Shown in pieces: positions 11 to 61,100 of a DNA stretch of 64,000 nucleotides. The stretch spans positions 186,001-250,000 of the forward strand of contig RSEE01000053.1 of the NCBI GenBank assembly GCA_003971905.1. The letters run 5' to 3'. The notes under the pieces are model-generated. The model ran no database searches, was not told where the DNA came from, and saw only the letters and a program-made list of their open reading frames with translations. Each line of letters starts with the position of its first letter. Position 1 is the first letter of the stretch. Source of the stretch: Moniliella sp. 'wahieum'. Its lineage: Eukaryota. A program made the position numbers and the translations under genes.

Positions 11-108
11 CGGCCTAACCGGCCTAACCGGCCTAACCAGTAACCTAGTAACCCGGCCGAACACGGCCTAACATGGAACAGGGCCTAAGGTTTAACAGGG
101 CTTAACAC
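11..108. repeat. Degenerate tandem repeat (GGCCTAACC)x3 with decaying copies; equals palindrome CCGGCC + TAA
   Basis: cggccTAAccggccTAAccggccTAAccagTAAcctagTAA read directly at 11-50, with more GGCCTAA-like copies to ~108. Confidence 0.8.
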
Positions 109-1794
109 GTGAAGCATCGTGCGTATCACCCGTCAGATATCAGATGATCGATGAGGGCGCTGCGGCGCTCAGGCGCGCTGAGGCTCAGCCCTGGGCTGAG
201 CGCCCTGAGCCTCAGGTTCTCTGGTTGAACCGCTCAGACGTACCCAGGCGCTCAGGCTCAGGTCTTAGCCTCCACGTGGAATATGCATACGGGCCTCTAC
301 GTTGACTAACATCGTTATGTTGCGTCAGTAGGGTTGTGTTGTCGGGTAATTGATTTAGTCGCTTAAATATTCAACGCTAAGTTCCAAGTCACTAGTCACT
401 GTAATTAGCCACTAGTACTGTGTGGCAGTGGAAGGCGAGCAAGGCAGGGGAAAAGATGGTGTGGATGCGATCAGGAGGAAGGCAGCCCGGAGGCCCAACA
501 GGAAGGGGCGGAACGGAGGCGAAAGGCGAAAGGGCCGCTCGCACATGGAGCTAACAATAGTCACTAGTAGTCACTCTCGTCCACACGTTTCAAACATTCA
601 CACAATCCCCATCCTGCTCCGTGAGGCTGGCATCGATCGCGTCCCCGGATCATCGATCATCGACCATCGACCATCCGCCTCACATCATCACACGACCCTA
701 GCCAACCCTCGGACATGCACCATGCACCATGCATCATGCATCATGCATCATGCGTGGTCTGTGGCCTGCCGCATGAGTGATGTGGCTGGTGACTAGGGAC
801 TAGGGACTAGTGACTTCATCTGCATCATGCACATCATGCATCCGATACCATCCAGCACGTGTCGCCGGTCACACATCATCTGTGGGCTCTACACTTGGGT
901 GCTAACATCGTCGGCGGCGGAGCAATGACGGGCAGCAGGCCGCTGGCTACCAGCTCCAAACAGCTGGAGCTGGAGCTGAAGCTAGCTCAGTACTGAGACT
1001 CAGTTGAGTGTGCTCAGCCGCTGACGCTGGAAACTAGCTTGAATTGCGGCAACGCTGAGCGTCAGTGGAACGTTGAACCTGAATGTGCAAGCGAAAAAGC
1101 TTCAGCGCAAAAGCCCAGATGTCTTCGAAGCCTGAACAAGCGCAAGCCTCCCCGATCATCTCGATCTCCCGGCTTTAGATCTTCAGAGCTTCATCCTTCA
1201 AGCTTCAAGCTTCGAACATCAAGCTTCGAGCTCCAATTCGCAACCTGGGCGGCCGCGCCACAGTCCTAGTCAATCCCAACGCCGCCCGATCCTTGCCCAG
1301 CCAGGCTTCACTTCAAGCCGGCTCTCCATCTCTTGTCGACTTTCACGTTCATTTTCGTCTCACGACGCCATCCCCTGCCTTACTCCCATCTTCCATCTTC
1401 TCCAGGCACCCTCTTGCCATCCAGTGTGTCCGTTAACAGCCTGGCGCATTGAGCGAGTCCCCGGTTGCGTACAGTTCTGGCTTCCAACCCTTCTACTCCC
1501 CAAGCGCCCTGATCGTCATCAGGCTTCCAGTTCCAAACGCCATTGACCAACACTTGCTCTGCAAGCCCAACTCGAACCCCCGCATCGCCCCAGCTTCTGG
1601 TGGAGGCAGTTCCTGTTCGCATTGCGTTCAGAGTCCCTAGCACACTGCACACTCGGCTCGCTGCGCTTCCGCTGCTGCTGGCGATCGGTCTGTTAGTAAT
1701 CACTCAGTTCCGGGTTCCACCCTCATCCTGCATTCCTAACCATTCTCTCGTTTGCAACCGCAGGCCATGCATCCACTGAGTGGTACTCCGGACG

Positions 1795-3868: not shown

Positions 3869-6800
3869 TCTTCCTCCCTTCTTCCTCTTCCTCCACACGC
3901 ACACTCCTTACCGGTTAAAGAGACCTACCTTCCTACTGTTCCTCTGCCCTACTGTTGCCCGACTGCCTCACCCCCCTTTCCTCACGTCAACGTATCCCTC
4001 CTCACCTAGGGCACCATCAGTCTTAGCTTACACAACAACGTGCGGTCCGCTTGACTGCTTTTGTTCACGTTGTGCACTCGCTCTCCCGCAAATTCTAATT
4101 GTCGGTCTGGCCGATTTGCAATTGTAATCAAAATGGCTGTCGAGCCGAAGGCGCGAAGGAGAAACTCCCGAGTACACAGGTGGACGAAGAAGTCTGCGGT
4201 TTCCGGTTTCCGGTTTCCGGTTACCCCGGTTACGATCATCACTTATCGGCAGTTAGCACTTGCAACTACTAAGAGTCTCAAAGTGGCTCTGCTGCCGGTG
4301 TAACCTAAAGGCCCATTCCGGGCTCCCCCGGAGCTTCTGCGTTTCTGCTACCTGGAATAGGTCCTCGCGTTGCTTCTACGACTGTGTAGCCAGCGCGCGG
4401 CGCCGCCATTCTGAATCTCGTATCACTTAAAGTGCTACATGTTAGGATTTACGCATCGCGCGCGACCGCCGAAATAGGGGGTGGGGGCGTCAGGGGCAAA
4501 CTGGTTGGTCAGCCGAGATGGGCCACACAGGGGAGAGAGCCTGGCAGATTATGCCGGGAAGCCTTTTGTTGTAAAATCAACAAAGGGTGTGCAACCGCGG
4601 CAGCCATTGAGGCGTTGACGGTAAAACGTACTGAACCTTGAGAGGCATCGAATATTGAGGGTAAAACGGAGAATGGAGAACGTAGAACATAGAACGTAGA
4701 ACGTTGAGATCGTTGAGACGTTGAGGCTTGATGTCACCGGTCTCGGTCACGCCGGCCCCGTGGGCTTTGGCATGTTGTGGTCTGAGATCAGACGAAAGGG
4801 GGCAGCGAGGGGGGCTGATGTCGACCAAGCCTGTTGTGCACCGCCTTTCATCCCTATGCTGACATGTTTCTCCGCTGGCGCGCCATCCCGGTTTTCCTAA
4901 CCCCGAAGGGCACCGTAGAGTCCATTCCCTTCCGTCCCTCCTCCGCACGTCGGGGTGCATCCTCGGCCTTCTTGGGCTCAGGACCACACAAGACGCTTGG
5001 GGTCCCTCCAGGGGCTCCACTAGTAGTAAGAAATGCCACGCCTGGGCTGAGCGCTGAGCGCCGAGCGCCGACGAACCCTGCACTCAGCCTCGGAGGCCGA
5101 GCGCTGAGCGCTGCTACGAATACTAAATGATGGGCTCGCTCTGTCTGCATGTTTCGGACTTTTTGCGTCCCCCACATGCTTCACGGGTCTCGACAAGACC
5201 CAACCCGGTTGCAATGCAGAACTGTGTTTTTTTTTCGAGGGACTCGCTCGATCGCTTGCTACGGCCGCTGAGGCCGCTGAGGGCGTGCGTATTACTAGCA
5301 TCATCACTCCTGACCTCAGGCTGAGGCCTCATCGACCTCATCGCCAATTCCACTCCACTTGGTGGACTTCAAAAAAGGCGTACCTCCGTATTTCGCGATT
5401 CAGACATGCCGGGAACGATGAGTGGCGACGGAACTTTTTGTGGGGCCCCTCCTTGTCGCCTTCCTTCGCCTCGGAGACGAAGTTGTCAATGGTTATATAT
5501 GGTGTCATGCATCATGTCACATGTCACTGGCGAAGAAGGACCAACGAGCCCTGACATTGATACGCACTTCATTTACCTACCAGCCCGAGTCGCCCACAGC
5601 CAATAAGAACAGACTCAAGTGATGTGATGAGCAGATGCCAAGAACTTGTGCCCAACAGTGTGTAGACACAGAACCATATGCTTTGGCCGGAAGTTTGACG
5701 CAGGGAGAAGACAAAAGGTCGAACAAGTCCTGTCACAGAACTCAACTCTACTAATGTAAGATCACCGCGGGATCCATATACAGAGAAAACTGAAAGCTGT
5801 GAGAGAGGTCGACGGAAATGGATGCCTGGACGCAAGGATTCGGAAAGACCCAACGGTGTTCGCTGAAGCAGGTCGATGGGACTGCTGTGGTGAACTAGGG
5901 AGTAACGCGGGTGTTGCCTGGTGTCTAGTCAAGCATGGATTCGCTAGATGTTGTGTTGCAAAATGACCCATTAGAGGGGAAAGAATATAAACAAAGGCTA
6001 TACAGACAGGACTTTAAGGAATCAACATACAACGTAGAAAGAGGAAGGCATAAAGGTGAATGGCTCTCCAAGGGAAACCGATCAAGTAGGGAAAGGTTCC
6101 CACGCTCAATTCATCAAAGAGATGCCAGGACACGCCTTGTGAAGGGAAGCGGGATGTAAGGGGCCTTCGTAAAGTTGATCCAATCTAAGGCCCGAAGATC
6201 CTTTTTCTCCAATCCTAACAGAGCTCGCTCCCAAAAAACCTATTCACGATCATCATGGAGCGGCGGTCCTACCATGTCCAGCGGCCAAAGCATCAGTCAT
6301 CTCGACCCTACTACATGTATCCTTTTTGATGACCAAGATTCTCGCTCCTTGCTTCTTTATATATTTTCGCTTTCTTCTCCACGTTTCTTCCCCATTGGGG
6401 ACGAAGGGCAGCTGTTCTCCGTTTGTTTTCTCGTTGCCGTCCGGAAACGGTCTCCCGAAGAAAGTGGTGCTTGTTCTCTATAGTCCCTTGTCTTTCCCCG
6501 TCGTCATTATACTGTCACATGATGCGTTGTTTCCCGTTTTTTAGTCCGTGCCCGTGTGCAATAGATCTCATGTGGGCTTGCCCCCGCGATCCATTGAGGC
6601 CTCCACCTCCTTTGTCAATCCATAAACAGTTGAGGTAACTCTCCGTATGATAGTTGCCTCCTCTGCTCTACGCCTCTTCATACTCCATAGGTAATTATCC
6701 CCAGCAGCCCCAGCTTCAATATCAGCTAAACGAGATGTGTAACGTTTCGTTTACGAAGAGGTTGTGGATCTCATCCGATGTTTGGTCTCCGTCTGTGCCC

Positions 6801-13330: not shown

Positions 13331-14989
13331 GGTGCGCAGGCTGTGCGAGGCGGCTGTGCGAGGGGCGAAGGCGGAGGGCGGTAGGAAACGGGAAGCGTAC
13401 GGGGGGGCGGGGGTGGTGGGTGGCAGCCGACGGGGTCAGGAAGGGCTGCGGGCAAGGCAGGTGGGGCGGTCGGGGGGGGGGGAGGGGTGCTTCGGCTGCC
13501 GCGTCTGGCGTCTGGCTCGGGTCTGCGCACAATTGGCGCTGTGCTCGATCTGCTGTGCCCCAGGTTCGCTCGGCCGGGCAGGATGCAGGAGCAAACCAAC
13601 ACGGCTGGCTGGCTGGCTGGCTGCCGCATGCCATCCAATTACCACTCACCCTCTGCTGCCGCGCCAGCCTCGCTTGCTGCTGCGCTGTGGACACCAACAC
13701 ACGCCCGCCCCGCACAGCGGCAGTCACCTGCCCACCGGTTACCGGTCATCGATCAACGCTGAGGCACAGCGCTCCGCGCCGGTCCGGTCCCTAGTCACTA
13801 GTCACTAGTCAGCAGCCCACACCGGTCGCCGCGTCACCACCCCGGCCATCGACATCAAATATCAAGCATCGATCATCGATCATGCATCATGCCTCTGCTC
13901 CAAACCAGCACAGCACCCGTGCTCAGTGCCAGCGCTCCAGCTGGGGCACGGCGTGAGCCTGTGAGAGCTTGCGGTGCGTTCTGAGACGCCGCTGCCCACC
14001 AACACCTGGGCCAACGCGCCAACGCCCAAGCACGCACCATGTGCATGCGATCGGTTGGACCACCCGCTCGCATGGCGCCTGTATGCGCTGCTCCCCCCAT
14101 TCCAGTCACAGCTGTGCCTGCGCTGCCCCCCACCGCTGCCCAAATGCGAATTCGGGTGTCGAACTTTGCTCACATGCACAGCGCTCAGCCGGGGCGCCTG
14201 AGCGCACATGCCGCCACAGCCCCACAAGGCACAACCCCCTACTGCCTGCCGCTACTGGCGCGGACGAAAGGTGTTGAGATCCGTGGCTGTTCGCCGCCGC
14301 GCCAGCTCCGCATCACGTGCCGCCCCCTGGCAGCTGCCCCAGCCGGGCACGTGGCCGATGTGAGGAGACCCGGCGCAGCCACTTGCCTAGTGTGTGTGGT
14401 GTGTTGCTCTTCCTCCCCCGATCTCCGTCCAAGCCCCGCTGAGCACCAGTGCTGAGCCAGAGCGCTTGCAGCGCTACAGCGCCTGCGCCGCAGGCCTCCG
14501 GCTCATAACTCGTACTCGGCGCATCTGCCTAAGCCTCACATGTCACAGCCCTCAGGGCCGCAGGCCGCAATGCACCACCACACAGTTCCCAGTTGAACAC
14601 AGACTCCACCATCCCACCTCTTCCACAGCCTCCACCGCCGCCACCACCCGCACGCCACCACCCACCCTGGAAGCAGGAACACACCACGCAAAACCCACCT
14701 TTCCCGTCTCTGGCCTCCACCACACCAGCCCCACCCGAACCACCCCATTCTGCGTGTGTTTCAATTTCAAGTTAGACGTGTCTATGAGACAGGTACAGTG
14801 CCCATGCAACACGTGTCACACTTCACGCATGTGTATGATGCATGGTGCGGCGTATGGAGCACGCATGATACCATGCATCTGGCGACCTTTTCAGAGAGCT
14901 ATGCAGGTATATGCGTTACTTTTGCCTCCACACACCCGTGCACGGGGCACTCTTCGGCTCGCTCCAGCCGCCTGAGCCTGACACGTGTC

Positions 14990-15335
14990 CAGCTTCAAGC
15001 TTCACGAGCTTCCAGCTTGCTCTGCTCAAAGCGTTTGGACAACTCAGATCTCAACGTTCTCAACAGATATCAGGATCTCAGATGCATTGAGCGAGTTGAG
15101 AGCGTTGAACGTATGTTAAACGTTGAACGTTGAACGTTGAACGATGTGAAGAAACGTATTCAACACGTATACTCAAACGACTCGACACTCAACCACTCAG
15201 TATGAGTACAGTGGCTCGTGTGTCCGTTCCTTCAATCCCTCTTCAGGCCTCAGGCCTTCAAGCTACTCACTAGTCACTAGTCACCAGTCACTAGTCACTA
15301 GTCAGTAGTCACTAGTCAGTAGCTTCAATAGTCAC
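14990..15335. repeat. Dense cluster of period-7 TNA+palindrome arrays (AGCT, GATC, ACGT, GGCC, CTAG patches)
   Basis: (TCActag)-type x8 at 15267-15322, (acgtTGA)x3 at 15120-15140, TCAgatcTCA at 15044-15053. Confidence 0.9.
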
Positions 15336-15631: not shown

Positions 15632-16594
15632 CTTTGAATTCATCACTGACAAAGCTTAAGGCTTGGGACAGGGAAACACTACGCCTATAAACCGACCATT
15701 CATCTTGCGTGTGTTACTTGGTAGCGCCACCACGCTAGGGGGAACCACGGGATCGCCAAGATATCAGGACCCTTGGTGCTCGCCATCGATCCCGTATCCG
15801 AGGTAGCGCGTGTGACACGGATGAACGTTGAACGTATAGTAGACTAGAGGACCACCGGGCCTACGACCCGGTATGCGTACTCCTCGTGTTTTCCGTGCGT
15901 CTGTACTGAAGGGCTGGGGCTTCGCCCCAGCCTTCTCCGTGTTGGTTGCGAACACCCCACGGCCATCTTTCCCCCCTGGTCCAACCGTTCCATAGGCCCC
16001 TTTCCCCACTCCCCGCGTCTACCGGTCCATCGTCAACAGAGACTCCAGCACGCGACAGGGAACCGTCCCAAAGCAGGGGGATGTAGGGTTAGGTGGATTT
16101 ATACCCAATGTGTGGTGCTGAGGCGAGTGGCTGAGCTACACGTGCTATTAGGTCAGAACTTGGCATCGAGCTCTCTGTTTTATTATGAATTCAAAAGGGG
16201 GATATCAGTGTAATAACTTTTTTATAAGTCAGGGTTGGGTCTTTGCAATGTGTGACATGTATGTGACGACATGTGGTTTGCCAAGGGGTTGAAAGCACCC
16301 CCCCCCCCCGATGCGTTGGCACCGACAGTCCCTCTATATTCCTGCTCTCTCACCGTCCCACAGCTCCGAACCTCTGCTGAAAGTGTGAACTCTCTGAGAC
16401 CTCACAGATCTCACCTCTCATTTCTCTCTCTCAGCTTTTGCTTCACTAATAACTCACTGCTCCAGTCAGTAAAAGTCACGAATAGTACAGTCTAGTTCCT
16501 GTACATCGACCAGCAGAAAGGGGAAATAAGAATAACGCTGCATTTTATGTACCCCTGTCCCAGCCTTAAGCTCTGTCAATGATATGGATGCAGA
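15632..16594. mobile_element. Candidate non-autonomous DNA transposon/MITE bounded by ~30-40 bp imperfect inverted repeats
   Basis: Left TCACTGACAAAGCTTAAGGCTTGGGACAGGG (15643-15673) versus right CCCTGTCCCAGCCTTAAGCTCTGTCAATGA (16553-16582). No internal coding potential and no clear target-site duplication. Confidence 0.45.
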
Positions 16595-18218
16595 AGGGAG
16601 AGGGGTCTTTGCGTCCAGCGCGATCTATGCTATCCCATCGCTGCTCTTGAACGATTAATCATCGATCATCGAAGACTACCCTCAAGTGGCGTGTGGTCTG
16701 TGCGGCCACACCCTAACAACGCTGCGTATAACGCGCAAGCTTGAAGAGCTTGAGGCGGTTTAGGTACACAGAGATTGACGTTTTGATAGTTGAGTCTCAA
16801 CGTTGAGATGCGTTTTACACGTTTTGAAGTTGGGGTTCAAAGTTCAACGTTCAACGTTCAGCGCGCTCAGCTGAGCAGCCTGAGCGCTTAACGTTAGTTG
16901 TGTGTTGATCACGTTGATCCACAATCTCTTATTGCTTTGTAGGAGGCCCCTTTGTTGCTTTTTCAGGAGTGTGAGACTGACTGTGACTACAGACTCGGGC
17001 CTGTTAGGACTATTGGGGCTCGGATCAGAGCTTGGAGTTTGGGGCCTCTCTTTTCGTGACTCGTTTGCGGCAAAAGCTTCGGATCTTCCGAAGGTGCCGT
17101 GTGGCCAAAAATACCTTCTCACCCCAAGAACTCTTCGCTCTGGATATGGCGGGGCATAACGCATAACCGGTAACCGGTAATCAGTAAGTGGTAACCGATA
17201 TAACCGGCGTGATCGGGTTCAACCTTGAAGCTTGAATTTAAGTCCGACCATAGGCCACCATCACACCAATAATTCCAGTCTACTCCCCGGTTTGTGACTC
17301 AAGCTCGCTCGCCCAAAACGCGTGGAACGACGATGTGAAGATGTCGACATTATAATGTCCTCTCTGCCGCAAAAACGCCATCGACAAGTGGCATAAGCCA
17401 GCCACATGGATGCATCCGCCTCCCACAGTTTCCTGTTGCCATCCGCCTGGGAGCTTCATAGGTTAGTTCAGTTCATCATCGTTCAGGCAATGATAGATGC
17501 ACAGAGGTTGTGATTAGGTTAATTTTGTAGGCGATGTTCTCCTTCCTGGATGATGGTGGGCTTCTTCCTTTCCTGCATGGCGAATATAAGGGGGCGATGG
17601 GGGTGACCCGTAGCCATCACACAGCATATGTCGGCATCCATCCCACAGGCCGTCACGAGACTCGAAGACACCTGAGAATATAGCAAAAGGAATGACAGTG
17701 GATTGTACATCACACGTTCATTACAGACAGGGTCCTCAGTCCTTGTAGTATACCCCCCTGCTCCTCTTGCACCATCAGTACTACTCAGTGAGTCCGCAGC
17801 CTTTTTCCAACTCTGCTGTTTGCACCACTAATCGTCCCGTTGCAGCCAGTTGTGAAGGCGCGTTACGATGGCAGACACAACATGCGTCTTGACGGATGCG
17901 AACAGGGAGGCACTAATAAGTATTTCTCATGGGAAAAGCAGACAAAAGCCAGGGGTACAAAATGGTCATGCAGGGGAGCAGATTCGAGGAGCCAAAGGGT
18001 TTAGAAGGACTTCATTTGCCAATCACATGCGGGAGCAGATTTTGGATTAATGTGGGTAAAAATACAGGCAAAGCGTCAAGGTGGTGGGAGATCGTCAAGA
18101 GCGTCAAGAGGAGCAAGGCATGAAGAACAGAGGTGCAACCGACATTGTGCTAGACTGGGAAGGAAACGCGACGAGAAACAAAGGAGAACGACGGATAGGG
18201 AAAAAAGGGTTGGTTCGT

Positions 18219-20554: not shown

Positions 20555-21430
20555 GGTGGTGGAAGGAGTGGTGGCGGCGGGGTGGCGGCGATGGCGGCGA
20601 CGAGGAAAGGACAAGCACGCGGTACTTAAAAGTGCCGTCACATGCCGCATGCCAGTGCCAGGGCCCCTGCGCTGCAGCGCTGGGCCCAAAAAACTTTTCT
20701 CCATTCCATTCCGCCTGCACAGGCCTGCACCCGATCACCGATCAGCAGCCTCCCATCCCATGCGCTGGTCCTCGACGTCATCCCACTGCCCAGTCCAACT
20801 GCCCAGCCCCCCAAGGCAGGGTGGGGGAGGGGCGGCACCTCGTCACCACCACCATGCGTTGCGCGTCCATCCGGCCACATTCAACATCACCGGCCATACG
20901 TGACACGCGCCCCATCTTGTCACGCCAATCCCTGCCTTCAGTTCGACAAGATGGTCTAGGCAGCGTGTGCGCCCTCAACGTTCTCAACGTTCTCAGCACG
21001 CAGGCTGCAGGGCCAACAGCAGAGGGAGAAGGGCGAGGCATATATTCCCCGACGGTTAGGCCAACATGGAGCCAGTTAAGAAAGCGAACAGCCGACGGGC
21101 ACCCGGTCGGCCTAATCCGGCCTAACTTCGTCTCACGCGCCACCCATGGCTGGCTGAGGCAGTGCACGTGACTGCGAAAGTCAAACGTTCAACGTTCAAC
21201 AAGCTCCAAACACCCAGCCCGGAGGCGTGAGGTGGCCAGGGCCGGTGACCACGTGCACTTGAAGTGCGGGCAAGTGCATGCCCCCCGCCGCGGCATACGC
21301 TGGCCGATCACCACAACAGCCCCCACCACCCTCCCTCCACCTCCGCGCGCGCGCCGACACCCGGCAAACCCACCGGGACGGCTGCACACACGTGGCCCCC
21401 TCGCGCCCCCCCCCCACTGCCTTCCACTAC

Positions 21431-22671: not shown

Positions 22672-24185
22672 CCTTGCCAGACCACCCCTTGCCCCTCTCC
22701 CCTCCTGCATGCATCCTTTCTTCGTGAATGTGGGCGCGCCTCCCCTTGCCTCTCCACCTGCACATGTACCGCATTGATATAAGGGTAGTCTTGTCGCCAA
22801 GTCGTGCGCCCGATTGCGTTTGCGATCTAAGATCTAACGCCACTTCAGTGTTGGTATTAGAAGGCTAGAATGTATATATGGCAGCCGTAAGCTTTACAAT
22901 GAATGCGCCACTAGAGAAGCACACGCATCGTCGTTGAAGCTTGAAGCTTGAAGTATGACAATCTCCGTTATAGCAGCAAGAGTGTATGTATATAGTACAA
23001 CAACTTAAACGAAATCGGGGGGTTGTATATAGCGAGCGACACAAGAGCAGGCAGTGGTGCACGCCGTCTGTGCGAAAGCACACACCACGATCAACGGCAA
23101 CACAGTCTCAAAAGGGCTCGATATCTGAATACGGAATGTATGGGATCAATCGATCGATAACCTTTTTTTTCAACCGAGTGGCTCATGTCCAGTCTCTTGG
23201 CGTGGCTTCTCGAGGCTCGATGACTAGTTTTTGTCTCTAGATTCGTGACGGGGAGATTGTTTGGACGTTAGGTGTAACGGGGATAGTATCAATAATATCA
23301 GTACCGTGTATGGCGTAGGCGGAGAATCTATGTAAATGTATTAGCTGAGAGGAGTGTGGAGAATTATATAGTTCCCTATTATACTGACCACGACATCTGC
23401 TCTGTTATTGATTGGCAGTAGGTGTGCGACTGCGCCCTGTTTTGCGCTCCTGCATGTTGGTCACTTCCCTTGTTCCTGGGTCTTACCTCCACAACCGGCA
23501 CCGCTTTCGCATTCGATCCTGCTCGCTCGTCGCTCACCGGGCTCACCATCAACAGCCTCTTACCGATGAAACTGTTCGCTCACCGCAGCCACGCTCACCT
23601 AGTACTGTCTTCTGATCAACGCGATCAGCCTGATCGCTCAGACTGATACCCGAGGCTTGGGTATCATATATCAGGGTTAGCTCAGCGCTACTCAGCCCCC
23701 TAGATCGTTCAGTCAAGCGGGGGCATCCTGTGGGGAATCTGTTGCGCCCAGTTGTGGCGCGCACACTTGGTTTATACTGATTAATGATCGCGTATTGATT
23801 AAAGAGATGAGACGATGAGATCAAACAATATCTGGATGAGATCAACGACACCAAAGCATCATCGATGGGATATAATATGATCGGTGAGTATCATGTACAC
23901 TAGCTTTGAAACAGGCTCCTGAAGGCGTCCTGGATCGATCATGCTATCAGACCATCAATTCCCAGCCTTCTCTGAGGCTTGCGTGGCGTTGATGGGGATC
24001 TTCACTCGCCAACTCCAATCCCCCTGGATTCCCCTGGGCGCAGGGGCATCGGCAAAGTTCAGGACAGGGGAGTTGGAGCATAGCCCATGATGTGCTTATT
24101 CACCTCCTTTTATTGCGCACCGTTCTTCCTTGGCACCCAACTACCACCTTTCTCTCATTGCTGTCCCTTCCACGCACTACCCGTC

Positions 24186-28133: not shown

Positions 28134-28834
28134 GCTGGCGTGCTGGCAAGAGGAAAGACAGAGATGCTGCGGCGGCGACAGGGGCGAGGGTTTTCAACGG
28201 GTGGGCAAAGGGCAAAGGGCAGCACGCAGTACTGCTTCTGGTGGGATGATGATGGGCGCAGAGGGGGGCAAAAGAATGTGTCGCAGCGGGGGGGCGAGGT
28301 GGTGGCGGGGGGGAGGGCGGAAGGGGCAGAGAGAGACGGAGGAGGGATGGAAGAGAGACGAGGGAGGGAGGTGGTGAGGGAAGCAGAGGAGGCGAGGGCG
28401 GAGGGAGAGGGGGGCGGAAGACGGTGGGGGGGTGGTGTGTGTCGCTGTGTTTTGTACAATGGGGCTGTGGGCGGCAGGCGAAGGCACGCTGCGGTGGAGC
28501 CCAATCGGGTGTGGGACGTCGATTGTGCTGTGCGCTCCACCACGTATCGAATTGCTCGCCCAGGCCATCGGTGATTTGACTAGTGAAGCGAAGCTTGACC
28601 CGGACTAGCTGGAGACAAGAGCAGACCAGACTAGTCTGATCCAGTGCCTATGCCAGTGTCACACATCAGACGTCACGCGTTGCAGCAGACGCAAGCGCGG
28701 AGGCAGTGTGCTGCATCCTCCAATAAGCGCTAAGCGCTAAACCTAAAATACGCTGTTCAGAGGATGTCCCGATCCCGCGCAGCTTGGCGATTGCCATATT
28801 CGCAGGAACATCGAGGCCGGAATGGCCTCCATCG

Positions 28835-28914
28835 ATCCATCCATCCATCCATCCATCCATCCATCCATCCATCCATCCATCCATCCATCCATCCATCCAT
28901 CCATCCATCCATCC
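28835..28914. repeat. (ATCC)20 microsatellite
   Basis: Perfect 80 bp tetranucleotide run. Confidence 0.98.
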
Positions 28915-30217
28915 GGCACAAACCCGTCTGTCAGGCAAACACATCTGCGATCCTCTCTGCGCGTGGCCAACTCCTACCGATGTCCGTCAAAAAGACAACT
29001 CAACGCGCTTTTTCCGATGCCTCGCGCGAGCCTCTGAGGCCCGGAGCTGTCGCAGGCTGACGCCTTCCACAGCCCTCTGTGCACGAAACCATCTCAAAAA
29101 TGCAGTCTCCTTTATTCAGATCAAAAGCTTAGCTTCAAGTACGACTAGGCCTAAAGCTTTAGTACCTTGGGTACTACTGAGAATTGAGTAATTGAGTAAA
29201 ACGAAGTTTTGTTTGGGGGGTTGTGACGTGGGGCGTGTGACGCGTGACGCGCGTGATGTGCATACCTGCACCGCAGTCTGCACTTTGTTTTGTGCGAGAC
29301 AAGATATGGGGGCTGGCGCATTAGGAGAGTCTTGCACTGTGCACAATGAGATGAATTGATCGATCTCAGATCTCATGAATTGCACATGATGCACATGTAT
29401 CGAGTATCATCAATCAGCGCCGAGACTCCGTCAACTCCCCCACTCGCCAACTCTCCAACTCTCCTCCTACCCGGGCAAAGGCAAGCCGGGACAAGCCCCG
29501 GCGCCCCCTCCGGGCCTCCGTTGAGTACGTTTTTGAACGTTGACCGCGCTGAACGACCCATATATCCAGCACCGCCGTCTTGCCAATAAGCAATGTGAAG
29601 GACACTGGACAGGCGCCCAGGATAAGCTCATGTCCCCCGAAGTCGTGATTGCCTACATGCCAGTACCATAATGCCCAACGGGGGTATACGTATCAGTAAC
29701 TAGTAACTAGTAACTGTTGGTAACCACAACATGTAACCAGTAAACTCCCGTTACCGTTTCCTGAGGCCTGAGGCCTCTCAGCGTGGAGTCCTGTGGGGCC
29801 TATAGTAATAGGGCCTGAGTGAGGGGTGGATCGGAGGGCGCTATTGCTGGCAGAGAGGATCGAGCAGCGCCACTTGCTGGATGCCACCCCATCTGAGAGG
29901 ATCTGTCCCCTTTTTGAGTTCTGAAGGGTCTGAGGCGCGGCCTGTGATGGATGTGAAGCTTCTGAAGCTTCAGGCTGAGGCGCGCATCCATCTGATATGT
30001 GAACGCCAGGCTGAGTCGCTGAGAGGCGTCGAGGGCGGCGAGAAGTCCAGAGGTCCTGTGGCAGAGACCTCTCGTGTGGGCAGGATGTGGGTCACTCGTC
30101 TCACACATTACAGGAACGGGGGCACAGCCTAGTACGGCACTGTGTTACAGCCTGAGGCCCCTGAGGCCTGACATATGATACGGCACACTGGACCGACGCG
30201 TACCAAACTCCCTCATT

Positions 30218-30247
30218 CATGTGACATGTGACATGTGACATGTGACA
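30218..30247. repeat. (CATGTGA)4 period-7 array
   Basis: catgTGAcatgTGAcatgTGAcatgTGAca read directly. Confidence 0.95.
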
Positions 30248-32468
30248 ATTTGATATGCTGTGTGGGGCGCGCGGCTCGGATATGCCTGTGTTTTCTCTTC
30301 TCTCGACCCCTCTTACACTCGCTCTGTTTTGCCTCAAGATCCTCGCTCAGGTCAATTATACACCTGGATTCAGTAACACAGAACTCAGGCACTCACAGTA
30401 CTGAGACTCAGTAGTCATCACTTGCTAAATAATATAGGCAGTACTCTTCTCTCGCCATGCTGAACCTGTGTACAAGACGGCTCGATTGAATGAAAAAGCA
30501 AGAGGGCGTACGATGAAGCTTGAAGGACAAGACTACTGCGTAGTGCGCACAACGTAATGGCTCTGTAATAGGAGCCTCGAACGCAATTGCTTATTGCACG
30601 CGGTTCGAAGCCAGATAAAAAGGGCTGGTGTTTTTCACAGCAATGGCATTATTGCTGGCTGTTTTGTTTCTGCCGTATCGCGCTTTCGGTGTAGGTCGCC
30701 GGGAATGGAGTCGGCTTGTTGGAACGGGTAGGAATATTAGCTCACAATCATGTTTTCCGGCCCTATATACCTTCGACACGCAATACCATGCTTAGAGACC
30801 CACATGTATATATGTGTAACACATCGAACCTGTAACAGGTAACACCACCCCAAGTGGAACGGTGAGTCCAGCCTGTCAGCCCGTCCACAACTCTTTTGAT
30901 TGGTACCATTATGCTTAAGCTCCTCGTCAAAAACATCAATATTCCACTTCCACGGTCGCGCATACTGCCCACGTCGCCCGGCCGGACACACTTGAACGCA
31001 TTATCCGTCGGACTCGCCCGACACGAACAAGATTGCGGAGCGCAGTACCAACACAGCATTTCACTTGCGCACTCCGTGCCACCAGTTATTGTGAACAATA
31101 CCCCATTCTCTTTTTGATATGGTATATCACGTGTAACCATCAAGAAGGTCATTTGCGGGTAAAAAAATAATGTTAGAGAGGAAGAGTTGGAAGTTGTTGA
31201 CGATGATGATATGTATACGAAGACATGGCATCACTGACGGTTGGTTTGCGCGATACACACGGGGTATAATTGGTTGATTCGGCTGGGAACAACCGTGGCG
31301 GAAAGGAAGACAAACAGAGATTGCCATGTGGCCACAGAAGAAGACAATCTTATTTTCCCAGATCAGGGGGGCGATGGTCCAAGCCACCTCTCGTGTATGA
31401 CTTCTGCACCACGGGAAAGAGCATGAAATGCACTGAATCTGCCACAGAGTGTTATGCTTCTACTAATGGACACAAACATGATGGGGCAAAGTATAATGGG
31501 GGGGCCAGAAGGATATACTCCCTCTCTGTCGTCACAGAAGGCCATCAGACAACTTTCGATTGGGTTAAGGCCGCATTACTTTTCATGATCCCCACGTCTC
31601 CAAACGTGCAGTGAGTTCACGGAGTTTCTGATTTGGAACGGGCCTTGAAGCTTAATGCTTGGTGCTTGAAGCTTGAAGCTTGATGGGCGAGGCGTAAGCC
31701 ACATGTTTTGTTCACCTTTTTGAGTGGCACAGTATGCAATCACAAAATGGCATATAGATACTCAGCCTCTACCGTTTTGTCGGCCAAGGTTAGTGGACCG
31801 ACACCATAATGATCGCCTCATTTCTTACAGTTGACGGACCTTTGCTGGAACGGGTCAAGTGAGAAAAGGAATACTCCTCGGCTGGCTCCTTCGGGGGAAT
31901 ACGGATTGGCGAGAGATGAGAGGAATGCGGAGTACAACACGCGGCAGCGACCGTGACTTCTGACATCTGATGTCGCACCAAGTGTTGAACTTACACTTTT
32001 CCCTCGGTCTCTGCTTCTCCAGTCGACAGATACGTAGCCTAAGAAGTGATCAGAGTGAAAAAATGGGGGTCGGGCCACCGCGCCCATTCTCTACGGTCCA
32101 TCACAGCTTATAAGCATTGCGCCGCGGCTCTCTCTTCGGCGCCCCAGCAGCTGCATCAACATTCCTCTCGCAGGAATTAGGGCCGTGTGTGCACCATGAA
32201 AGAGGACAGCATACCGTTATCCTCTTTGCCAGAATGGGCCTTGTCGCCCAGCTGTCACGATGGATCAGACAGGGCTGATCTTGTGACTGGAAGAGACGCT
32301 CCGTCAGGCTGCGGCGTAACCTTTGATGTTCAAACTGCTTGAGGACGGGTTGGGTCGGAGGTCCGCTTGGACGGTTCCGGAAAGTTAAAGAGCGCCGCGT
32401 CGGGGTCTACGCGCCGAGGTAGCGAAGGGGGAAAAATATGACGGAGACTTCGTTTCCACAAAGTTCTG

Positions 32469-34472: not shown

Positions 34473-35457
34473 GGTGGGGGAAGGCGAAGGAGATGGTGGG
34501 GGCAGGGAGGGGGGGGTGTGGTGTGGCATTGGGCGAAGTGGATGCCACACGAAAGCCAGGGCTCAGCTTGGGCGCAGCGACCAGACTGGCGCGCTGCGCG
34601 CTGGCGCGCAAAAAAAACGAGGGATCTACGGGAGAGATCAACAATGCTCGGCCAGAGCGGTGAGCCTGCGTGGGCATTCGTTTGTCTTCATTCAGCGCGC
34701 ATTCAGTGCTCAGCGCCTGAATGCTAAGGCTGAGCTCAGCCAGAGCGCCTGCGCTGCTGAGCCCGCGCGTCTGACGCGGGCCTGTTGGCCTGTGGCTGCT
34801 GTCTGGTGCTGTCTGGTGCTGTCTGGTGCTGGTAATTCCCAATTACTGGTGTCGTTCCGCTGTTCTGTTTTACGCGCTGCGCGCTACGGGCCATTTCGGA
34901 TGCGTTCTGCCTTGGGCATTCTCATGTTGCTATTGCAAATTGAAATGTAAAAGCACTCGTGGTCACATCACGTGTCACACACCAACTACCACTAGCACAT
35001 GCCCTCAGCGGCAGGCTCATGCATCGCGTCACCGGCACCATCCAACTCAACGTCCAACAAACGTCATCCGCCTCAGGCCGCCACCCCAGTCCCTCGGGCC
35101 TCAGGCCGGTCAGGCGTAGTCGCTGGCCATCCAGCAGTCGTCGAACACCGCCCGGACAGGCCCACCTAGCTGCTCCGCCTGCCGCTTTGGTATCCTGACC
35201 TACCCAATCCCATCAGCCACTGCTCAGCGCGGAACTAGCCCCCTCGACTTTGTTGGCGGGGAACACTACATCAAGCTTCAACAGGTATAGCGTCTGGAAA
35301 AAAATATACATCGAGCCTGGCCCGTCCAGAGCCAGGAGAGGAACATGGGGGGGTCAACGTTCAACGTGACCGACGTGATCAACAAATACACCAAGCGCAC
35401 CGACAGTTCGGCCGCAGCAGCCATTGGGAAGCAACATGCCCAAGAGAACCAGCGGGG

Positions 35458-53468: not shown

Positions 53469-56288
53469 GAAGGGCAAAGGAGTAGCAGCGGGGTCGATTG
53501 TGGCGGCTGATGTAGATGCCCAGCTGGGGATGGGGATGTTTGGTGGGGAGTAGGTGCGGAGTGTGGAGCTGCGGCTGTGACGGCGTCACCCACTGGTACC
53601 CTGGCTGAGCAAGCTCACCGCACGGGCCAAGCGCTGAGCAAGTGTCCTCGGTTGACGATGATTGCCTGGTGGGCGGCAGTGCGCCAAACCGTAGCCCAAC
53701 TGCCTGCTGACGTCAGTGCCCGCGTCCGTGCGGCCCGTCTAACCCTACTGCTTCCCAACCCCTGTGCAACCCTACTACACATCTTGGGTCACCGGTCACC
53801 GGTCAGCCTGTCAGCCGGTCAGGTGACCTTGGCGGTCAGGGCACTAGCCACTAGTCACCATGACCGGTGACCCCGGTGGGCTCCCTTTGGTGGGACAAAG
53901 TTTGAAGTTGCACGTTTACGTCACGTGGACGATGCCCCTGATATCCTGATCCTGCGTCGCGTGAATCGTGACGGGAAACAGAAATAACTCGCACTGCTGG
54001 TACGGCAACGCCACTGCCGGCCACTGCCCGCTCGGTTAAAATGTCTCGCGTCGCGAAATTCCAAGATTCACAGCCAAGAGACAAGGCCTGGCAAAAGTGC
54101 GTACGTAGCCCCCATCGCCCATCGGACTACTGAGTCTTACAGGGCCTCAGGCCTCAGGGCCTCTCTCTGTACTGGGTACCTCAGTACCTGTGTGGCAGAT
54201 GGCCAGGGTTTCCCAATGCGGGGAACCATGGCGGGGCCCTGTGGTGGAGCAGAGTGGGGCTGTCCCGCCTGTCCCTTGTACCATGCGCGAACTGCCGGAG
54301 CGTCTAAGATCTGAACCCTGGCCGCACCCGGCCACACCCATCGTCATTGCGCCGCCTTTCCTTACTTACATCTCTGCAGGACCGGAGTATCTGGATATAG
54401 CCTGTTTGTACAGCCTTTTGTATAAGCCACAGCCACTCCCAGCGCTGCACCATCTACGCCCCAGCGCTGTCAAGCATAGCACATGACATGTGCATGTCAA
54501 GCTGTCAAGCTTCAAGCTTCAAGCTTCAAGCAGTACATGTCATGCATCACGGGCAAACGACAACAGCCGCATTATGTGCTTGCAGCATTTGGTGTTTAAC
54601 GTTTGACGTTTAGCTACGTTTACCCATCAGGTACACGCATACCATGCGGTTGCTACTTTGCTCCACGGCCAGATCCACCGGCGACGAGAAGCCATGTCTC
54701 TGCGACTGGTAACAGGTGGAACGCGTAACGCGTAAGGCCGCGCGGTACTCGGTAACCGATAACCCGAAGTACGCAGCGCTGTGCGCAGATGATCGATGAT
54801 CGATGATCCATGATAGATGACATGGCGATGCAACGCGTGTAGCCAGAGAGAGGGCTGCCCTGGGCTAGGCTGGCCTGCTCCAGTTTTGGTATATCCGACT
54901 GAAAGGTCGTCTGTGAAGCCCTCGGCGATACATCCTTCCACGGTCTCCGCGGACTTGTGAGAAGAGTGCTGGTGGCCAACAGCAGGTGGAGCTAGCGTGG
55001 GAGAAGCGGCTCTGTCAGGCTCTGTCCCATACACAGGCTAGCCAACGATCAGACACTTGATCACTGGCAACAGCAATTCGGTGGAGTAACGCGCGACGGT
55101 CCCTGGGCCTGTCGGTATAACCCAGTCGTGCACCATGTGTGCAACCGGATGCCAGGAACTAACTAGTCAAGACCTACCATCAAAAAGATGCATGATGCCA
55201 TGATGTGGGAATCCGTGATCTAAAACGGAGGTGTTCGTAAAAGTGATGCCGATGTAAGGAATGAACAATGCATGTGGGTGGTTCTACGATGAACTAATCG
55301 ATGCCCATCGATGCACGATGCACGATGCACGATGCAAGATGATCGATCGGTGATCGATGAGGAACCACCGGCCACCGGCCACCCGACTCGATCACACATT
55401 TTTCACTCGCTGTCGCATGTCGCGATCCTTCTAGGTAATCGATAATCCGGCTATCTGTGCTGCTATTCCTTTCCTAACCATCTCTCCCTCCTGTAGCTGG
55501 ACGAAACTGTCCCGGGTACCACCAGACCGACTGGCTGCTTGAGTACCTGGTTCTCCTGGTCTTGGCCAGCTTCGCCGGCTTCGCCAGCCTGTTGCAGTAG
55601 CTCGTCCTTCGTCACGCGTCACGCGTCCCGCGACTGGGCATTTGCAATCGTTGTAGTCACTGAATGGAGCCTGGCGGGGCAAGCGGAGGCGATGCGGGAG
55701 CGCGGTGACGGGGACGCGTGAGGGGCGATGCGGTGATCCTGAGGCCTGACCGCTGATTGATGATCCAAGGCGGCCCGGTGGGATTCTGAGATCTGAGACC
55801 CTGAGAGCGGGCGGGGCGGAAGAGGGTGCGGCATGTTGCAGTCGGTGCTGCGGGCGGTGCCAGTGCCGCACTGCGGAGGCGGATGGGGGACGCATGGATG
55901 GATTGGCGCTGGGCGGTGGGCACACGTGTTGCACGTACGTGGAACGCTGGATCAAAGTTCAAATTATCAAAGCGGGTGGTGCACGGGACGCATGGGAAGG
56001 TGTGCATGTGCCGCAGCGGGATGCATCCAGCCAGGGCAGGCAAGGCAGGCCGGTGCCCAGCCAACGCGGTGTGGCGGCAGGCACAGTGCCAGCATGCTTG
56101 GCAAGGACGCTGAGGCTGTCCTGGGGCCTGCGTGGGGGCCTGTGGGGGCTGCCACCGCTTGTCACATGGTGTCACGTGCCATGCTCCCCCTGGCCGAAAC
56201 AGAAGGGGGTCGGTCAGCGGTCAGCGCCCAGTCAGGCTCAGCGCGCAGACTCAGTGCTCGGCTGCGCAGCCAGAGACCTGCAAAGAGA

Positions 56289-56357: not shown

Positions 56358-56715
56358 AGCCCGCCAGCTGAGCGCTGAGGCTCAGCGCTGGCGTGGACTG
56401 GCCCAGCGCCTGAGATCAGAGTACGTGGTGTCGAACGCTTAACGTTCAGCCAGCGCTGAGCATCAGCCGCCAGGCCCAATAGGGCCAATAGGGCGCCACC
56501 CGCGTCGTGTGCTCACACATGCGAACACCTCGCCCAGCGGCAGTCTCGCCCTGCTTACGCTCGTGAGGCTTGCCTAGCACCCTGGTCCTCCCTCGCCCGC
56601 CTTTTCTCTCCCAGGTGCGCCCGCCTCGCCCATCCTCGCCCTCCCGCCATCCTCCCACAGCCAGCCTCTCCATTGCACACTCCCCCCGCCACCCCCCCCC
56701 CTCCCTCCCACCACC

Positions 56716-57721: not shown

Positions 57722-58141
57722 CTGGAGATGGCGAGCGTAGCTGAGCGCCCCAAAAGCTGCCGTTTCGCTTTCCTTTGCCTTATTTGTTTCCTTCCCCCCC
57801 CCCCCCCCTCCTCCTCCACCCCCCCCGCCGCCTCCTTTGGACCTTCACTTTTTTCCCCTCGTTCAACCCCCCGTTTCCTCACCTGCTGCTTTGTCTGTTC
57901 CTTTGCTCTCGTCCAATCCCACGACCACGAAACGAGATTCACGCATCTGCCTGCATCTAACCTGGCGCTTCAAACTAGTACATTGAGCCACAATGACGAG
58001 GTCCAGGGTTGGTGAAACCACCAGGGGCTTCGAAAGGACCCGATGCAACCCAAATAGACAAGGCCTGGACCCAGAGAAGGAAAATGAACCTGCAACCGAA
58101 TCAAGACAAAAACACGAGCCAGGGCAGGAAAGGGACAGTAA

Positions 58142-61100
58142 CTAATAAACGGCAAAGAAAGAGCGATGACAGATGACAGATGACTGATGATCCATGATGG
58201 TAAAAGAGGGAAGAAGGAGGCCCGTTACGGTGATGGGGGCGGTGTGCGAAGGAGACTGATACGGGTCATAGTACCTGCCGGCCGAGTGGTATTCTTCCCT
58301 TGGCTGTTCCTCAGGCAGACGTGCTGGCTCGGTCTCTTCGGCAGGATCCACGGGCGCCAAGAGCGGGGTGCTAACCGCCTGGATTGAACGCGTTGGGTAC
58401 AGTGTGGGTGGGGTGTAGGAAGGCGCGGGACTCATTCCTCGGGACAAGACCAGGTCCATCTGGGACGAAGAGCCATAGCCCTTGTCCCATTCGTAGGGTG
58501 GTTTGGAGAGAGAGTCGGCGGTCGGATGGCTCGGTACGGTCCCGGTCCCCTGGGGATCCAGGTTCGAGGCAAGCAACAGGTTGTCCTTAGAATCACTCCG
58601 CCGCATTTCCTCGCCCGCGTAGACATCTCCCATTTCGTACTCTTCTCCAGGCGCCTCGGACATCGAACCGTGGTACCCATTGTACTGTGGTGGATACCCT
58701 GATCGTGATAGCCCATGCCCAAGGCGAAGGACCCGGAGCTTGCCTTTTGCCTCTGGCCCCCGGCGCCAAGGACGAGGAGATGGTGGTGGCAGACAAGACC
58801 GATCTGGTGTCGTCATCGGTGCGAGGATCGTACTCGAGCTGGTCCTCTTGCACAAAGGCAATCTTGAGGCCACCCTCGATGGCAGCCGTCTCGACTTGGC
58901 GACCATCAACAACAGCCTGTTTGGCCTCGTCGATGCGACCGTGGTATACTTCTGGCAACAATGCATGGCTCCAGGCATGCACCATGGGGGTCCACAGTTT
59001 TTGCGTTAGGAAAGGATGGCCAAACCGGCGCTCCAGACGATGATGCTTTTGGTCGCCGTGATGAAGCCGAATCTGGGTCGCCTCCTCTGCCGAAGGAATG
59101 TACCACTCGAATTTTTGCTCAAAGGCACGGCGCAGGTACACCTTGAACACAACCACGAACCCAATGGGAGGAAGACAGGCAACCGCCCGGTACCCCGTAC
59201 TGGGATCTTCGAGCAGAACCGAGAGGATCAGAATGGCCTGCATAAAAAGTACGTTGACCAAGAACCGATTCGAGGCCGACTGCCACAACTTGCCGCCCGT
59301 CTCATGCTTGGTTTGGTTGACATACATGAGCTGGTACTTGTTTGCAATGCTGTATGCCCAAAACACGATCGCTCCCAGTAAAGCGATCAGCGGGAAAGAG
59401 GGGCATAGACCATCACGACAGCGCCCACAAACAGGAGGTTGGCGTAGTAGGTGCTGTATTCAAAATACGGTGGCTCAGTGAGTTCACGAACGTCACGGGG
59501 CGTCTTGCTAACCAGACCTTTCAGCAACCAAACATAAAGCAGCTTGATCGCTTGGGCGAGGTCGAGAAAAACAACATCACTTTCAACGGCATCCAAGTGA
59601 GCCAATAGTTGCCCAGTAGAAAGTACTGTTGTTTGATGTTTTGTGGCAGCTGCGGCAGCTGGATCCGGTCGAGTAGCTTGGTACCTTTGACCTTGCGTGC
59701 CGACACGCCCACAATGATGAGCAAGTTGATGAACACACCAATCATCAGGGTAAAGATGAGAAGCTGAGAGATAACTAGGTAGCCGTAATACTGCCCCAGG
59801 ATCACCCGATCGGTGGTGACCTTGGATGTGATACCACGGTACTTGGCCAAGCGTCGCATGAAGATGGGCAACAGCCAACTTGCTACTGCCGAATGAGAGG
59901 GGGAAGAATACCAGCAACGGCAGCAAAGGAGAGTTTGTGGAGTGACGCCACTCGTAAAGCCACTTGAGAAGAGGATGGTGCATCTGGACTGTCGATTCCT
60001 GGGAGCCCCCGGCGCTTTCAGTCCAGCTGACACCACTCGTGGCAAACAGACTCATGTTGGTAATCAAGTTGACACCAGTCAGCGGGACCGCATTGATAAA
60101 TAGAAGGACAATGAGCAAAATGAAGCCCATCACGCTCGACCGAAAGCGCTGCCAGGAACTCAAGGTCAAGTTGCGCCAAATGATCGCACTAGGAGGCGGA
60201 GCAAGTTGAATCTTGAGTCCTCTCGGACGCCTACGGCGCAGGCTGCGAGCAGCGGCGTGAGCATAGTGTACGCCGCCCATACTGGCAAAGCCGTAGCTGA
60301 CGGGGCGCTTTTCGGCCATGCGCAACCGTTCCTCCTCAATTGACGCCTCGACTTTTTCAATCTCGTCGGAGAAGTGGTCGATGGCATCAACCTTGCGACC
60401 ACCGAGGCCGAGGAAGTCGCCGAGACGAGTAGTGGGGCGATGTGAGCGTACGCTTGTGGGGTATTGATGTACCAGACCAGAGCGCGCTCCAGCTTGCGCA
60501 CCAAGTTTTTGTGGCGATCAATTAGGTCCGGTAACAGGCCCATGTCGCGCCCAATGGTGACTTCGGTGGTGGGATAAGGCATTTTGAGTTGCTGCAGCAC
60601 GTCCGAAAGGGCTTGGTCCGAGCGCAACGAAGGGGCAACGTGAGTGATTAGCAAGGTGCGTGCGTAGAATGCATTTTGGTATTCAGGCGAGCGGAACCAG
60701 TCCCACCGCATGCGCAACATCTGGCGCCAGTTGAGCCAGAGGAATCCCAGGGCGACCAGGGTGGCAAAATAACTCATCGCCACATGAGCCCACAGGTAGC
60801 CGCCGTGCACATTGCGCATGGTGATCATGACGAGCGGAGCATTATCCGTATCGGTTTCCCAGCTCGAGTCGCGGTCGCGAATGTTGGCAGTGACGTCGAT
60901 GGGGATCAAGACGATGCAGAAGACGATGCTAATAATGGTGACGGTCCACCTCATCATGCGAGTAAAGCGCAAGTACGCCACTGCATCCAGGCCAACAATG
61001 GGCAGTAGGTCCCGCTCCTTCATTCGCCACAAGGGAGCGATCCAAGCAAAGGGGTTGCGACCCATGGCGGGGCAGGCAGCGCGGTCGTCGGAGTACTTGA

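Follow-up and report, generated by a model that had tools for sequence, protein, structure and literature searches.

Ordinary microsatellites, transposon footprints, transposase target sites, hairpin-prone repeats and topoisomerase II duplications are the closest described counterparts of the repeat class reported here, a set of arrays in a 64-kb stretch of contig RSEE01000053.1 of Moniliella sp. 'wahieum' (positions 186,001 to 250,000; the window, meaning the whole stretch that was analysed). Each array repeats a 7-bp unit in which T-N-A (TCA, TGA or TAA) is followed by a 4-bp palindrome, here called the core. Like ordinary microsatellites, the arrays consist of head-to-tail copies, are confined to non-coding DNA, have degenerate flanks, cluster locally and form higher-order units. 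Unlike them, they make up a class set by a symmetry rule and not by sequence or composition, with a period of 7 (and a period-9 sibling) and a T-N-A centre. Standard microsatellite surveys end at 6-nt units and demand more copies, so such arrays would usually be missed. No published description of this repeat class was found in the literature, although most subscription journals and supplementary files lay outside the search, so that an earlier description is possible.

In the canonical Tc1/mariner footprint, TA-CAG/CTG-TA, a duplication and a few end nucleotides form a short interrupted palindrome with an ambiguous middle base, and this likeness was the root of the analogy drawn in the original prediction, an earlier note made from the letters of the window. 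However, the arrays advance by 7 bp instead of 5, use 11-12 kinds of core and carry a middle base that is copied, not re-drawn; no element matching a Tc1/mariner-type footprint of the arrays was found in the window. Transposase targets centred on T-N-A include GCTNAGC of Tn10, the extended palindromic target of PIF and the TNA duplications of the IS5 group. The likeness here is that of a dimeric enzyme on a site two-fold symmetric about T-N-A, and the Tn10 target is itself one of the 7-mers of the window (arrays at 5046 and 5099). Those enzymes show statistical preferences at fixed flank positions, whereas the flanks here are free in sequence and yet complementary to each other. CTG/CAG tracts, AT-rich palindromic minisatellites and other hairpin-prone repeats that are self-complementary form hairpins in slipped intermediates, the accepted route to their instability. 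Each strand of the arrays can likewise pair with itself, but the predicted stability neither selects T-N-A nor tracks array length. Trapped topoisomerase II in yeast leaves de novo duplications of 2-4 bp. There, too, a symmetric staggered break that is filled and rejoined gives a duplication of fixed length at dyad sites, and A^NNNN^T has the geometry of a 4-bp stagger. However, such an event would add 4 bp where the arrays step by 7, and no link to topoisomerase II was seen at the array sites.

The period-7 symmetry rule

Exact tandem runs numbered 52 at period 7, compared with 17 at period 6 and 10 at period 8, and Tandem Repeats Finder reported period 7 in 49 of the 150 rows listed (157 in total). 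Among primitive exact period-7 arrays of at least 14 nt (n = 65), 38 were symmetric under reverse complementation apart from the unavoidable middle base, a property of 10.6% of random units. The unit was TNA plus a 4-bp palindrome in 37 of these 38 (37/65 overall, against 2.2% of random units). The word formed by a palindrome between two TNAs occurred 96 times, compared with 7.25 ± 3.0 times in 100 dinucleotide shuffles. When 500-bp blocks were shuffled, so that local composition was kept, 0.05 arrays (maximum 1) were obtained against the 37 observed, and words with the same N on both sides numbered 79 against 2.4 ± 1.6. Pairs of identical TNAs peaked at a lag of 7 (151 vs 37 ± 6), with echoes at lags of 14 (73) and 21 (79); a palindrome was enclosed by 79 of the 151 pairs at lag 7, palindromes being 6.0% of all tetramers. 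Across periods 4 to 12 the symmetry was confined to period 7, save for a small sibling class at period 9 (TNA, palindrome and 2 nt), which comprised 6 of the 14 exact period-9 arrays (random units 2.7%). The pattern is real, sharp, far above chance and unexplained by known repeat biology. The counts support a single symmetry rule across differing units, for which neither a single satellite nor unconstrained slippage accounts.

The original prediction had described just such a geometry, shared by differing units and beyond a single satellite or ordinary slippage. All 15 of its located examples were present where it had placed them, the enrichment over shuffles and the period-7 autocorrelation that it called for were both found, and the rule proved specific to period 7 and to the T-N-A centre. 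A lag autocorrelation computed after masking tracts of at least 10 nt was discarded, the mask having taken out 10,969 nt and being too aggressive.

The period-7 arrays were also sorted by their central symmetric pair and by the number of complementary flanking pairs (0, 1 or 2). With T-N-A at the centre, 1, 5 and 37 arrays had 0, 1 and 2 such pairs, that is, both flanking pairs were complementary in 37 of the 43 T-N-A-containing arrays. The corresponding counts were 10, 2 and 0 for A-N-T, 22, 9 and 1 for C-N-G, and 24, 11 and 0 for G-N-C, and these three centres look like chance. Shifted in phase, the unit is equally a 6-bp palindrome, A-xyy'x'-T, with a single spacer base.

Eleven of the 12 G/C-containing palindromes served as cores in arrays of at least 14 nt. 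The earlier claim that all 12 occur held in this form for 11 of them, and GTAC was confined to two single words. Its companion claim, that cores of A and T alone are missing, was true of the arrays but not of single words (TATA twice, ATAT once and TTAA once). The absence from arrays (0 of 49 positions, vs 21 of 268 singles) is weak evidence because only about 3.8 were expected, and it was dropped as a strong argument. The middle base was C or G in 69 of the 79 same-N words. Across the 96 words, neighbouring Ns were the same in 79, complementary in 6 and otherwise different in 11. That neighbouring TNAs share N favours direct duplication, and argues against fold-back synthesis and against independent footprints.

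Exact arrays ran to 2.0-4.3 copies. Of the 37 arrays, 26 started (p = 7e-4) and 25 ended (p = 2e-3) at offset 0, 2 or 4, where 3/7 would be expected in each case. Tract ends therefore coincide with the junctions between the blocks [TNA][xy][y'x'] and rarely fall inside one. Two-copy arrays began in at least 3 different phases. By hand count, minimal tracts of 10-13 nt were bounded by TNA in 26 cases and by the palindrome in 3, compared with about 18 and about 8 calculated by hand for even phases. Outside tracts, single 7-bp T-N-A palindromes numbered 174 against 134 ± 11, and the other three centres were slightly depleted. GCTNAGC was the commonest of these singles (47). There was no general palindrome excess in the window beyond the contribution of the arrays themselves; when palindromes were split by centre, only the 7-bp T-N-A class was modestly enriched.

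Two apparent regularities were set aside. Nine chains of mixed cores looked about 20-fold enriched over the roughly 0.45 estimated from shuffles, but a 'grammar' of cores was dropped as a main argument; the tetramer following a TNA-palindrome-TNA word was a different palindrome in 16 of 134 cases (background 6%), an enrichment of about 2-fold only. A strand or orientation rule was rejected after a runs test on the order of C/T and G/A arrays, which gave 16 runs where about 19 were expected (not significant).

A codon-usage classifier was too weak to delimit exons (GC3 0.62, patchy calls), and open reading frames (ORFs) with Pfam support, 28.2% of the window, were used instead as the coding proxy; introns, untranslated regions and intergenic DNA were pooled as the remainder. 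None of the 37 arrays overlapped a Pfam-supported ORF (chance of zero overlap about 5e-6 by our own calculation), and on this proxy the count agrees with the earlier statement that exons are essentially free of arrays. Among tracts of at least 10 nt, 4 of 104 overlapped such ORFs, all four being 10-11 nt long. Any 7-bp repeat can be expected to be kept out of coding sequence, where the gain or loss of a single unit alters the frame. The arrays were found in gene-flanking DNA, on 5' and 3' sides alike, and gathered in about ten stretches, including those at 0.4-1.2, 5.0-5.5, 13.7-17.2, 21.2, 22.8-23.0, 28.7-31.7, 35.3 and 53.8-55.8 kb. No array lay in the gene-dense region between 39.8 and 53.7 kb.

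The surroundings of the arrays carried traces of further copies. The same 6-bp palindrome recurred within 80 nt outside 33 of the 104 tracts (chance about 4%), 13 clusters held at least two tracts of one core, and 29 decayed neighbour units lay one mismatch from a palindrome. Degenerate period-7 arrays reached 10.4 copies, and at 15288-15322 two units had been duplicated together as a 14-bp higher-order repeat. The later life of the arrays, with its direct repeats, point decay, degenerate copies and two-unit steps, is microsatellite-like. Head-to-tail copies of a short unit were present in the 37 exact arrays and in the degenerate ones. In microsatellites, however, any motif may serve and usage follows composition and chance seeds, which the 37 of 65 period-7 arrays that obey the rule (2.2% at random) contradict, other periods being at chance.

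Origin of the arrays

We tentatively prefer, while holding it somewhat short of probable, the account that the arrays are neutral heptanucleotide microsatellites, self-complementary and particular to this lineage, which lie in non-coding DNA and represent neither a selected code nor the footprint of one element. In this account their births were filtered by self-pairing of the strand and by a putative T-N-A-specific symmetric step, and their later growth and decay were ordinary. Births and growth would occur by local tandem duplication of 7 bp (and of 14 bp) during replication or repair, and decay would follow. Perfect self-complementarity may come from a strand that pairs with itself in an intermediate, with a predicted stem of the 4-bp palindrome and a 3-nt loop of TNA. 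The exclusive use of T-N-A may come from a sequence-specific, two-fold-symmetric step, for example a putative dimeric nicking or cleaving activity centred on T-N-A.

Flanks that are free in sequence and perfectly complementary are not what the base preference of a protein would give, and they point to pairing or copying between the two halves. Since full complementarity was exclusive to T-N-A (37 arrays vs 0, 1 and 0) while structure fails to account for it, a sequence-specific step with two-fold symmetry is suggested. The T-N-A-only centres and the position of tract ends at block joints both speak for such a step.

Folding was predicted with DNA parameters. Two copies were predicted to form a 4-bp stem from neighbouring palindromes with TNA as the 3-nt loop. 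For the six G/C-containing cores listed, the free energies lay between -0.7 and -4.0 kcal/mol; the predicted mean over all 12 G/C-containing cores was -2.22 kcal/mol, and AT-only cores were near 0. As in hairpin-prone repeats, the 38 symmetric arrays of the 65 were self-reverse-complementary and predicted to fold. T-N-A always includes a flexible pyrimidine-purine step.

Several observations weigh against the microsatellite account. Hairpins with T-N-A were predicted to be no stabler than those with A-N-T and less stable than those with C-N-G or G-N-C, so structure cannot explain the main T-N-A rule. Neither abundance nor length tracked predicted stability: T-N-A was not favoured by it, and the longest exact arrays carried A/T-containing cores whereas all-G/C cores stayed at 2.1-2.7 copies, the reverse of stability-driven growth. 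An excess of self-complementary units was absent at periods 4 (27/255), 5 (15/85), 6 (2/46) and 8 (0/7), although an effect of hairpins alone should extend beyond period 7. Exact symmetric arrays were no longer than non-symmetric period-7 arrays, indicating that the excess reflects births, by a putative mechanism, and not growth. Among the window ORFs scanned, none matched a nuclease or transposase family, and the T-N-A activity remains putative; of the 225 window ORFs with 110 or more amino acids, 215 were scanned for transposase domains, as was a set of 11 ORFs. Finally, all results come from one 64-kb window.

Every specific model fails at least one observation. A bolder proposal, which we rate as less probable than the preferred account, is that the arrays mark, throughout the genome, the work of an endogenous activity not yet described, two-fold symmetric and specific for T-N-A, by which self-complementary 7-bp units are written into non-coding DNA. 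Two further specific models were considered and set aside. A symmetric 7-bp staggered break with fill-in accounts for the period, for T-N-A and for the kept N, but it fails on the perfect symmetry of the flanks and predicts a single phase, yet two-copy arrays start in at least 3. A 5-bp duplication with 2 palindromic nucleotides fits the 12-nt tracts (9/10, in two mirror phases) but would require the target to be asymmetric, and no mirror product was seen.

It is unlikely that the arrays are scars of a cut-and-paste element or nuclease that targets T-N-A. In this re-phased form of the first hypothesis of the original prediction, a 3-bp TNA target would be duplicated and 2 + 2 nt from the inverted ends left between the copies, hence the palindrome, adding 3 + 4 = 7 bp, with further units added by slippage. 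Minimal tracts of 10-13 nt agree with it in being bounded by TNA (26 vs 3 bounded by the palindrome), as do the N retained in the duplicated TNA (79/96) and tract ends at the joints of TNA, xy and y'x'. A 3-bp TAA/TTA target is the stated hallmark of Harbinger elements (PMC4423477), and mariner-type excisions are described as leaving a small duplication plus end sequence (PMC4561436). However, PIF/Harbinger excision is generally precise (PMC4561436). The T-N-A centre fits a Harbinger duplication, but N was C or G in 69 of the 79 same-N words where Harbinger targets have A or T. The 11 palindromes occurred at broadly similar frequency, and to produce them would take about a dozen families of elements that differ in their terminal dinucleotides. 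No transposase domain was found in the scanned ORFs, the sole terminal inverted repeat (TIR) element found had no 3-bp duplication, and two-copy arrays start in at least 3 phases.

More doubtful still is a selected cis-element, either one read by a protein that recognises T-N-A at 7-bp spacing or binds hairpin or cruciform DNA, or a device placing TGA/TAA stops in all three frames. A protein that reads sequence would impose just such a strict T-N-A rule, the arrays flank genes on both the 5' and 3' sides, and single 7-bp T-N-A palindromes are in excess (174 vs 134 ± 11). However, 11 interchangeable cores and any N leave a protein little to read, and the copies decay freely, as the 29 one-mismatch neighbours show. 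As to stops, a step of 7 is not divisible by 3, and among the symmetric triplet classes T-N-A alone includes stop codons, but the stops would lie on one strand only, no consistent orientation to flanking ORFs was seen when the lists were compared by eye, and random intergenic DNA already contains stop codons.

Very little weight can be given to the first hypothesis as originally written, in which a 4-bp palindromic target at A^NNNN^T is duplicated and a 3-nt T(C/G)A footprint is left by an element ending in TCA...TGA. The sum 4 + 3 = 7 is right, a palindromic target suits a symmetric 4-bp stagger, and a mismatch of the two overhangs would account for the presence of both C and G at N. An element was sought in the window on this basis; the tips of a 942-bp TIR element at 15642-16583 do read TCA...TGA, but neither a 3-bp nor a 4-bp duplication flanks it, only a 2-bp AT under one choice of boundary. 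The primary product of the model, TNA between two palindromes, was the rarest minimal form (3 vs 26). Successive events should draw N independently, yet neighbours were the same in 79 words and complementary in 6. We know of no reason for any G/C-containing palindrome to act as a target.

Its second hypothesis, iterated fold-back (hairpin-primed) synthesis about two symmetry centres 3.5 nt apart, is highly improbable as well. Each array unit does have two dyad centres, longer palindromes made of array units exist (e.g., 16846-16895, with a perfect 12-bp centre), and odd palindromes with arms of 5-6 nt exceeded the counts in all 40 dinucleotide shuffles. However, copying across the centre of the tetramer complements N, so that TCA and TGA should alternate, which they did in only 6 of the 96 words, and outside the arrays palindromes were not generally enriched. 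An assembly or sequencing artefact, in favour of which nothing was found, is very improbable, since we know of none that produces units of T-N-A plus palindrome, and the arrays comprise many different sequences set in otherwise ordinary unique DNA, decay by point substitution and avoid ORFs.

Array positions and neighbouring features

The 37 arrays are exact period-7 tracts, with strand given as '.' throughout, and are named here by TNA, core and copy number. At the start of the window were TCA.CTAG x2.0 (387..400), TCA.TCGA x2.3 (648..663), which runs on as the variant CCA.TCGA to 675, TCA.TGCA x3.7 (728..753), preceded from 714 by the variant CCA.TGCA, and TCA.AGCT x2.6 (1196..1213), the core of a degenerate array at 1181-1236 (7.9 copies, 71% matches). 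Two TGA.GCGC arrays, x2.3 (5046..5061) and x2.1 (5099..5113), were followed by TCA.CATG x2.1 (5513..5527).

In the stretch from 13.7 kb, TCA.CTAG x3.0 (13791..13811) preceded TCA.TCGA x2.4 (13867..13883), which is abutted by TCA.TGCA x2.0 (13879..13892). Beyond these came TCA.AGCT x2.0 (14991..15004), TGA.ACGT x3.6 (15119..15143) and TCA.GGCC x2.1 (15243..15257). Both TCA.CTAG x2.6 (15267..15284) and TCA.CTAG x2.7 (15286..15304) lie in a degenerate array at 15263-15337 (10.4 copies, 82% matches), which holds the 14-bp higher-order repeat (TCACTAG TCAGTAG) x2. The remaining members of this stretch were TGA.ACGT x2.0 (15822..15835), TCA.TCGA x2.1 (16658..16672), TCA.ACGT x2.7 (16842..16860), in the left arm of the imperfect palindrome at 16846-16895, and TAA.CCGG x2.4 (17164..17180).

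TCA.ACGT x2.4 (21184..21200) stood between two divergently oriented ORFs, and TAA.GATC x2.0 (22824..22837) downstream of the cation-efflux gene, with TGA.AGCT x2.9 (22934..22953) beyond it. The next group comprised TAA.GCGC x2.4 (28724..28740), TGA.CGCG x2.1 (29237..29251), TCA.GATC x2.0 (29362..29375), TAA.CTAG x3.0 (29695..29715), TGA.GGCC x2.4 (29760..29776), TGA.CATG x4.3 (30218..30247), the longest exact array, and TGA.AGCT x2.9 (31664..31683), inside a degenerate array at 31644-31683 (5.7 copies). TCA.ACGT x2.0 (35354..35367) stood apart. The last group held TCA.CCGG x2.7 (53787..53805), TCA.GGCC x2.3 (54143..54158), TCA.AGCT x3.9 (54505..54531), TAA.CGCG x2.3 (54720..54735), TGA.TCGA x3.0 (54788..54808), TCA.CGCG x2.6 (55610..55627) and TGA.GATC x2.0 (55785..55798).

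The period-9 siblings were TAA.CCGG.CC x3.1 (11..38), TCA.TGCA.CA x2 (823..840), TGA.GGCC.GC x2.2 (5263..5282), TCA.ACGT.TC x2.4 (20974..20995), TGA.AGCT.TC x2 (29954..29971), the sole period-9 array that is reverse-complement symmetric, and TGA.GGCC.CC x2 (30151..30168). At period 6, palindromic units were seen only in (TGATCA) x2.5 at 8532-8546 and (CTGCAG) x3.2 at 38055-38073, the latter in the region of the SMC gene (2/46, chance level).

The TIR element at 15642-16583 is non-coding and has inverted ends of about 34 nt, which read ATCA[C/T]TGACA[A/G]AGCTTAAGGC...GGGACAGGG. It is probably a non-autonomous DNA transposon with CACTG-type tips. A truncated relative was found at 32486-32620 (77% identity over 79 nt).

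The 50-bp imperfect palindrome at 16846-16895 is 80% complementary, with TCA units in the left arm and TGA/TTA units in the right; its perfect 12-bp centre is GCTCAGCTGAGC. Similar palindromes of 12 bp and 19 bp were seen at about 985-996 and at 56371-56389. A 14-bp repeat, GAGGTGCATGCAGG, was present in 5.2 copies at 56285-56357 (98% identity), each unit containing the 8-bp palindrome TGCATGCA; its period is twice 7, yet the unit breaks the T-N-A rule. The longest simple repeat of the window, (TCCA) x21.8 at 28828-28914, lies in an intergenic region that also holds several heptamer arrays. Low-complexity tracts rich in C or G were found at 57794-57835, 56682-56959, 51332-51387 and 39807-40060, with one mostly-C run of about 33 nt, and such tracts yield spurious long inverted repeats in the repeat search. 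The first 260 nt (1-260) were dense in TAAC and GGCCTAA words at mixed periods (8, 9, 10 and 17), together with CTCAG/CTGAG words.

The window has a G+C content of 57.7% and carries ordinary eukaryotic genes, among them those for a PAS protein, a kinase with a fungal KA1 domain, a cation-efflux transporter, GTP cyclohydrolase II, a cyclin, an SMC protein, ribosomal protein S19, clathrin heavy chain, a PX protein, an RSN1/PHM7 channel, SHR3 and PRP4. The best named relatives of the RSN1-type protein were those of Tilletiaria anomala (54% identity) and Violaceomyces palustris (50%), followed by Sympodiomycopsis, Ceraceosorus and Tilletia; closer database records reached 64-76% identity, and window proteins overall reached 64-82%. 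No protein identical to any window ORF was present among the matches listed in the protein collection. Because the RSN1-type protein matches smut relatives of the Exobasidiomycetes type, the source is placed, by protein similarity, among the fungi of the smut subphylum Ustilaginomycotina, Ustilago itself excluded. The heptamer repeats that the original prediction mentioned for Ustilago intergenic DNA were not found in the literature searched.

Meaning for genome biology

If the rule holds genome-wide, the arrays would be a clean signature, readable in sequence, of a specific event of DNA breakage or replication, comparable to the duplication signatures of topoisomerases and transposases. They would also give a direct handle on the birth of short repeats, the least understood step in the microsatellite life cycle, and a large share of the intergenic DNA of this lineage would have been made by one local process. 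Densely spaced and changing by 7 bp at a time, the arrays could be of use as markers. Because standard surveys stop at 6-nt units, other genomes may contain similar classes that went unnoticed. If an activity that writes around T-N-A does exist, it would amount to a mutational process of a new kind, or to a new class of scar left by mobile elements, in a relative of the smut fungi, one that can be read from its sequence.

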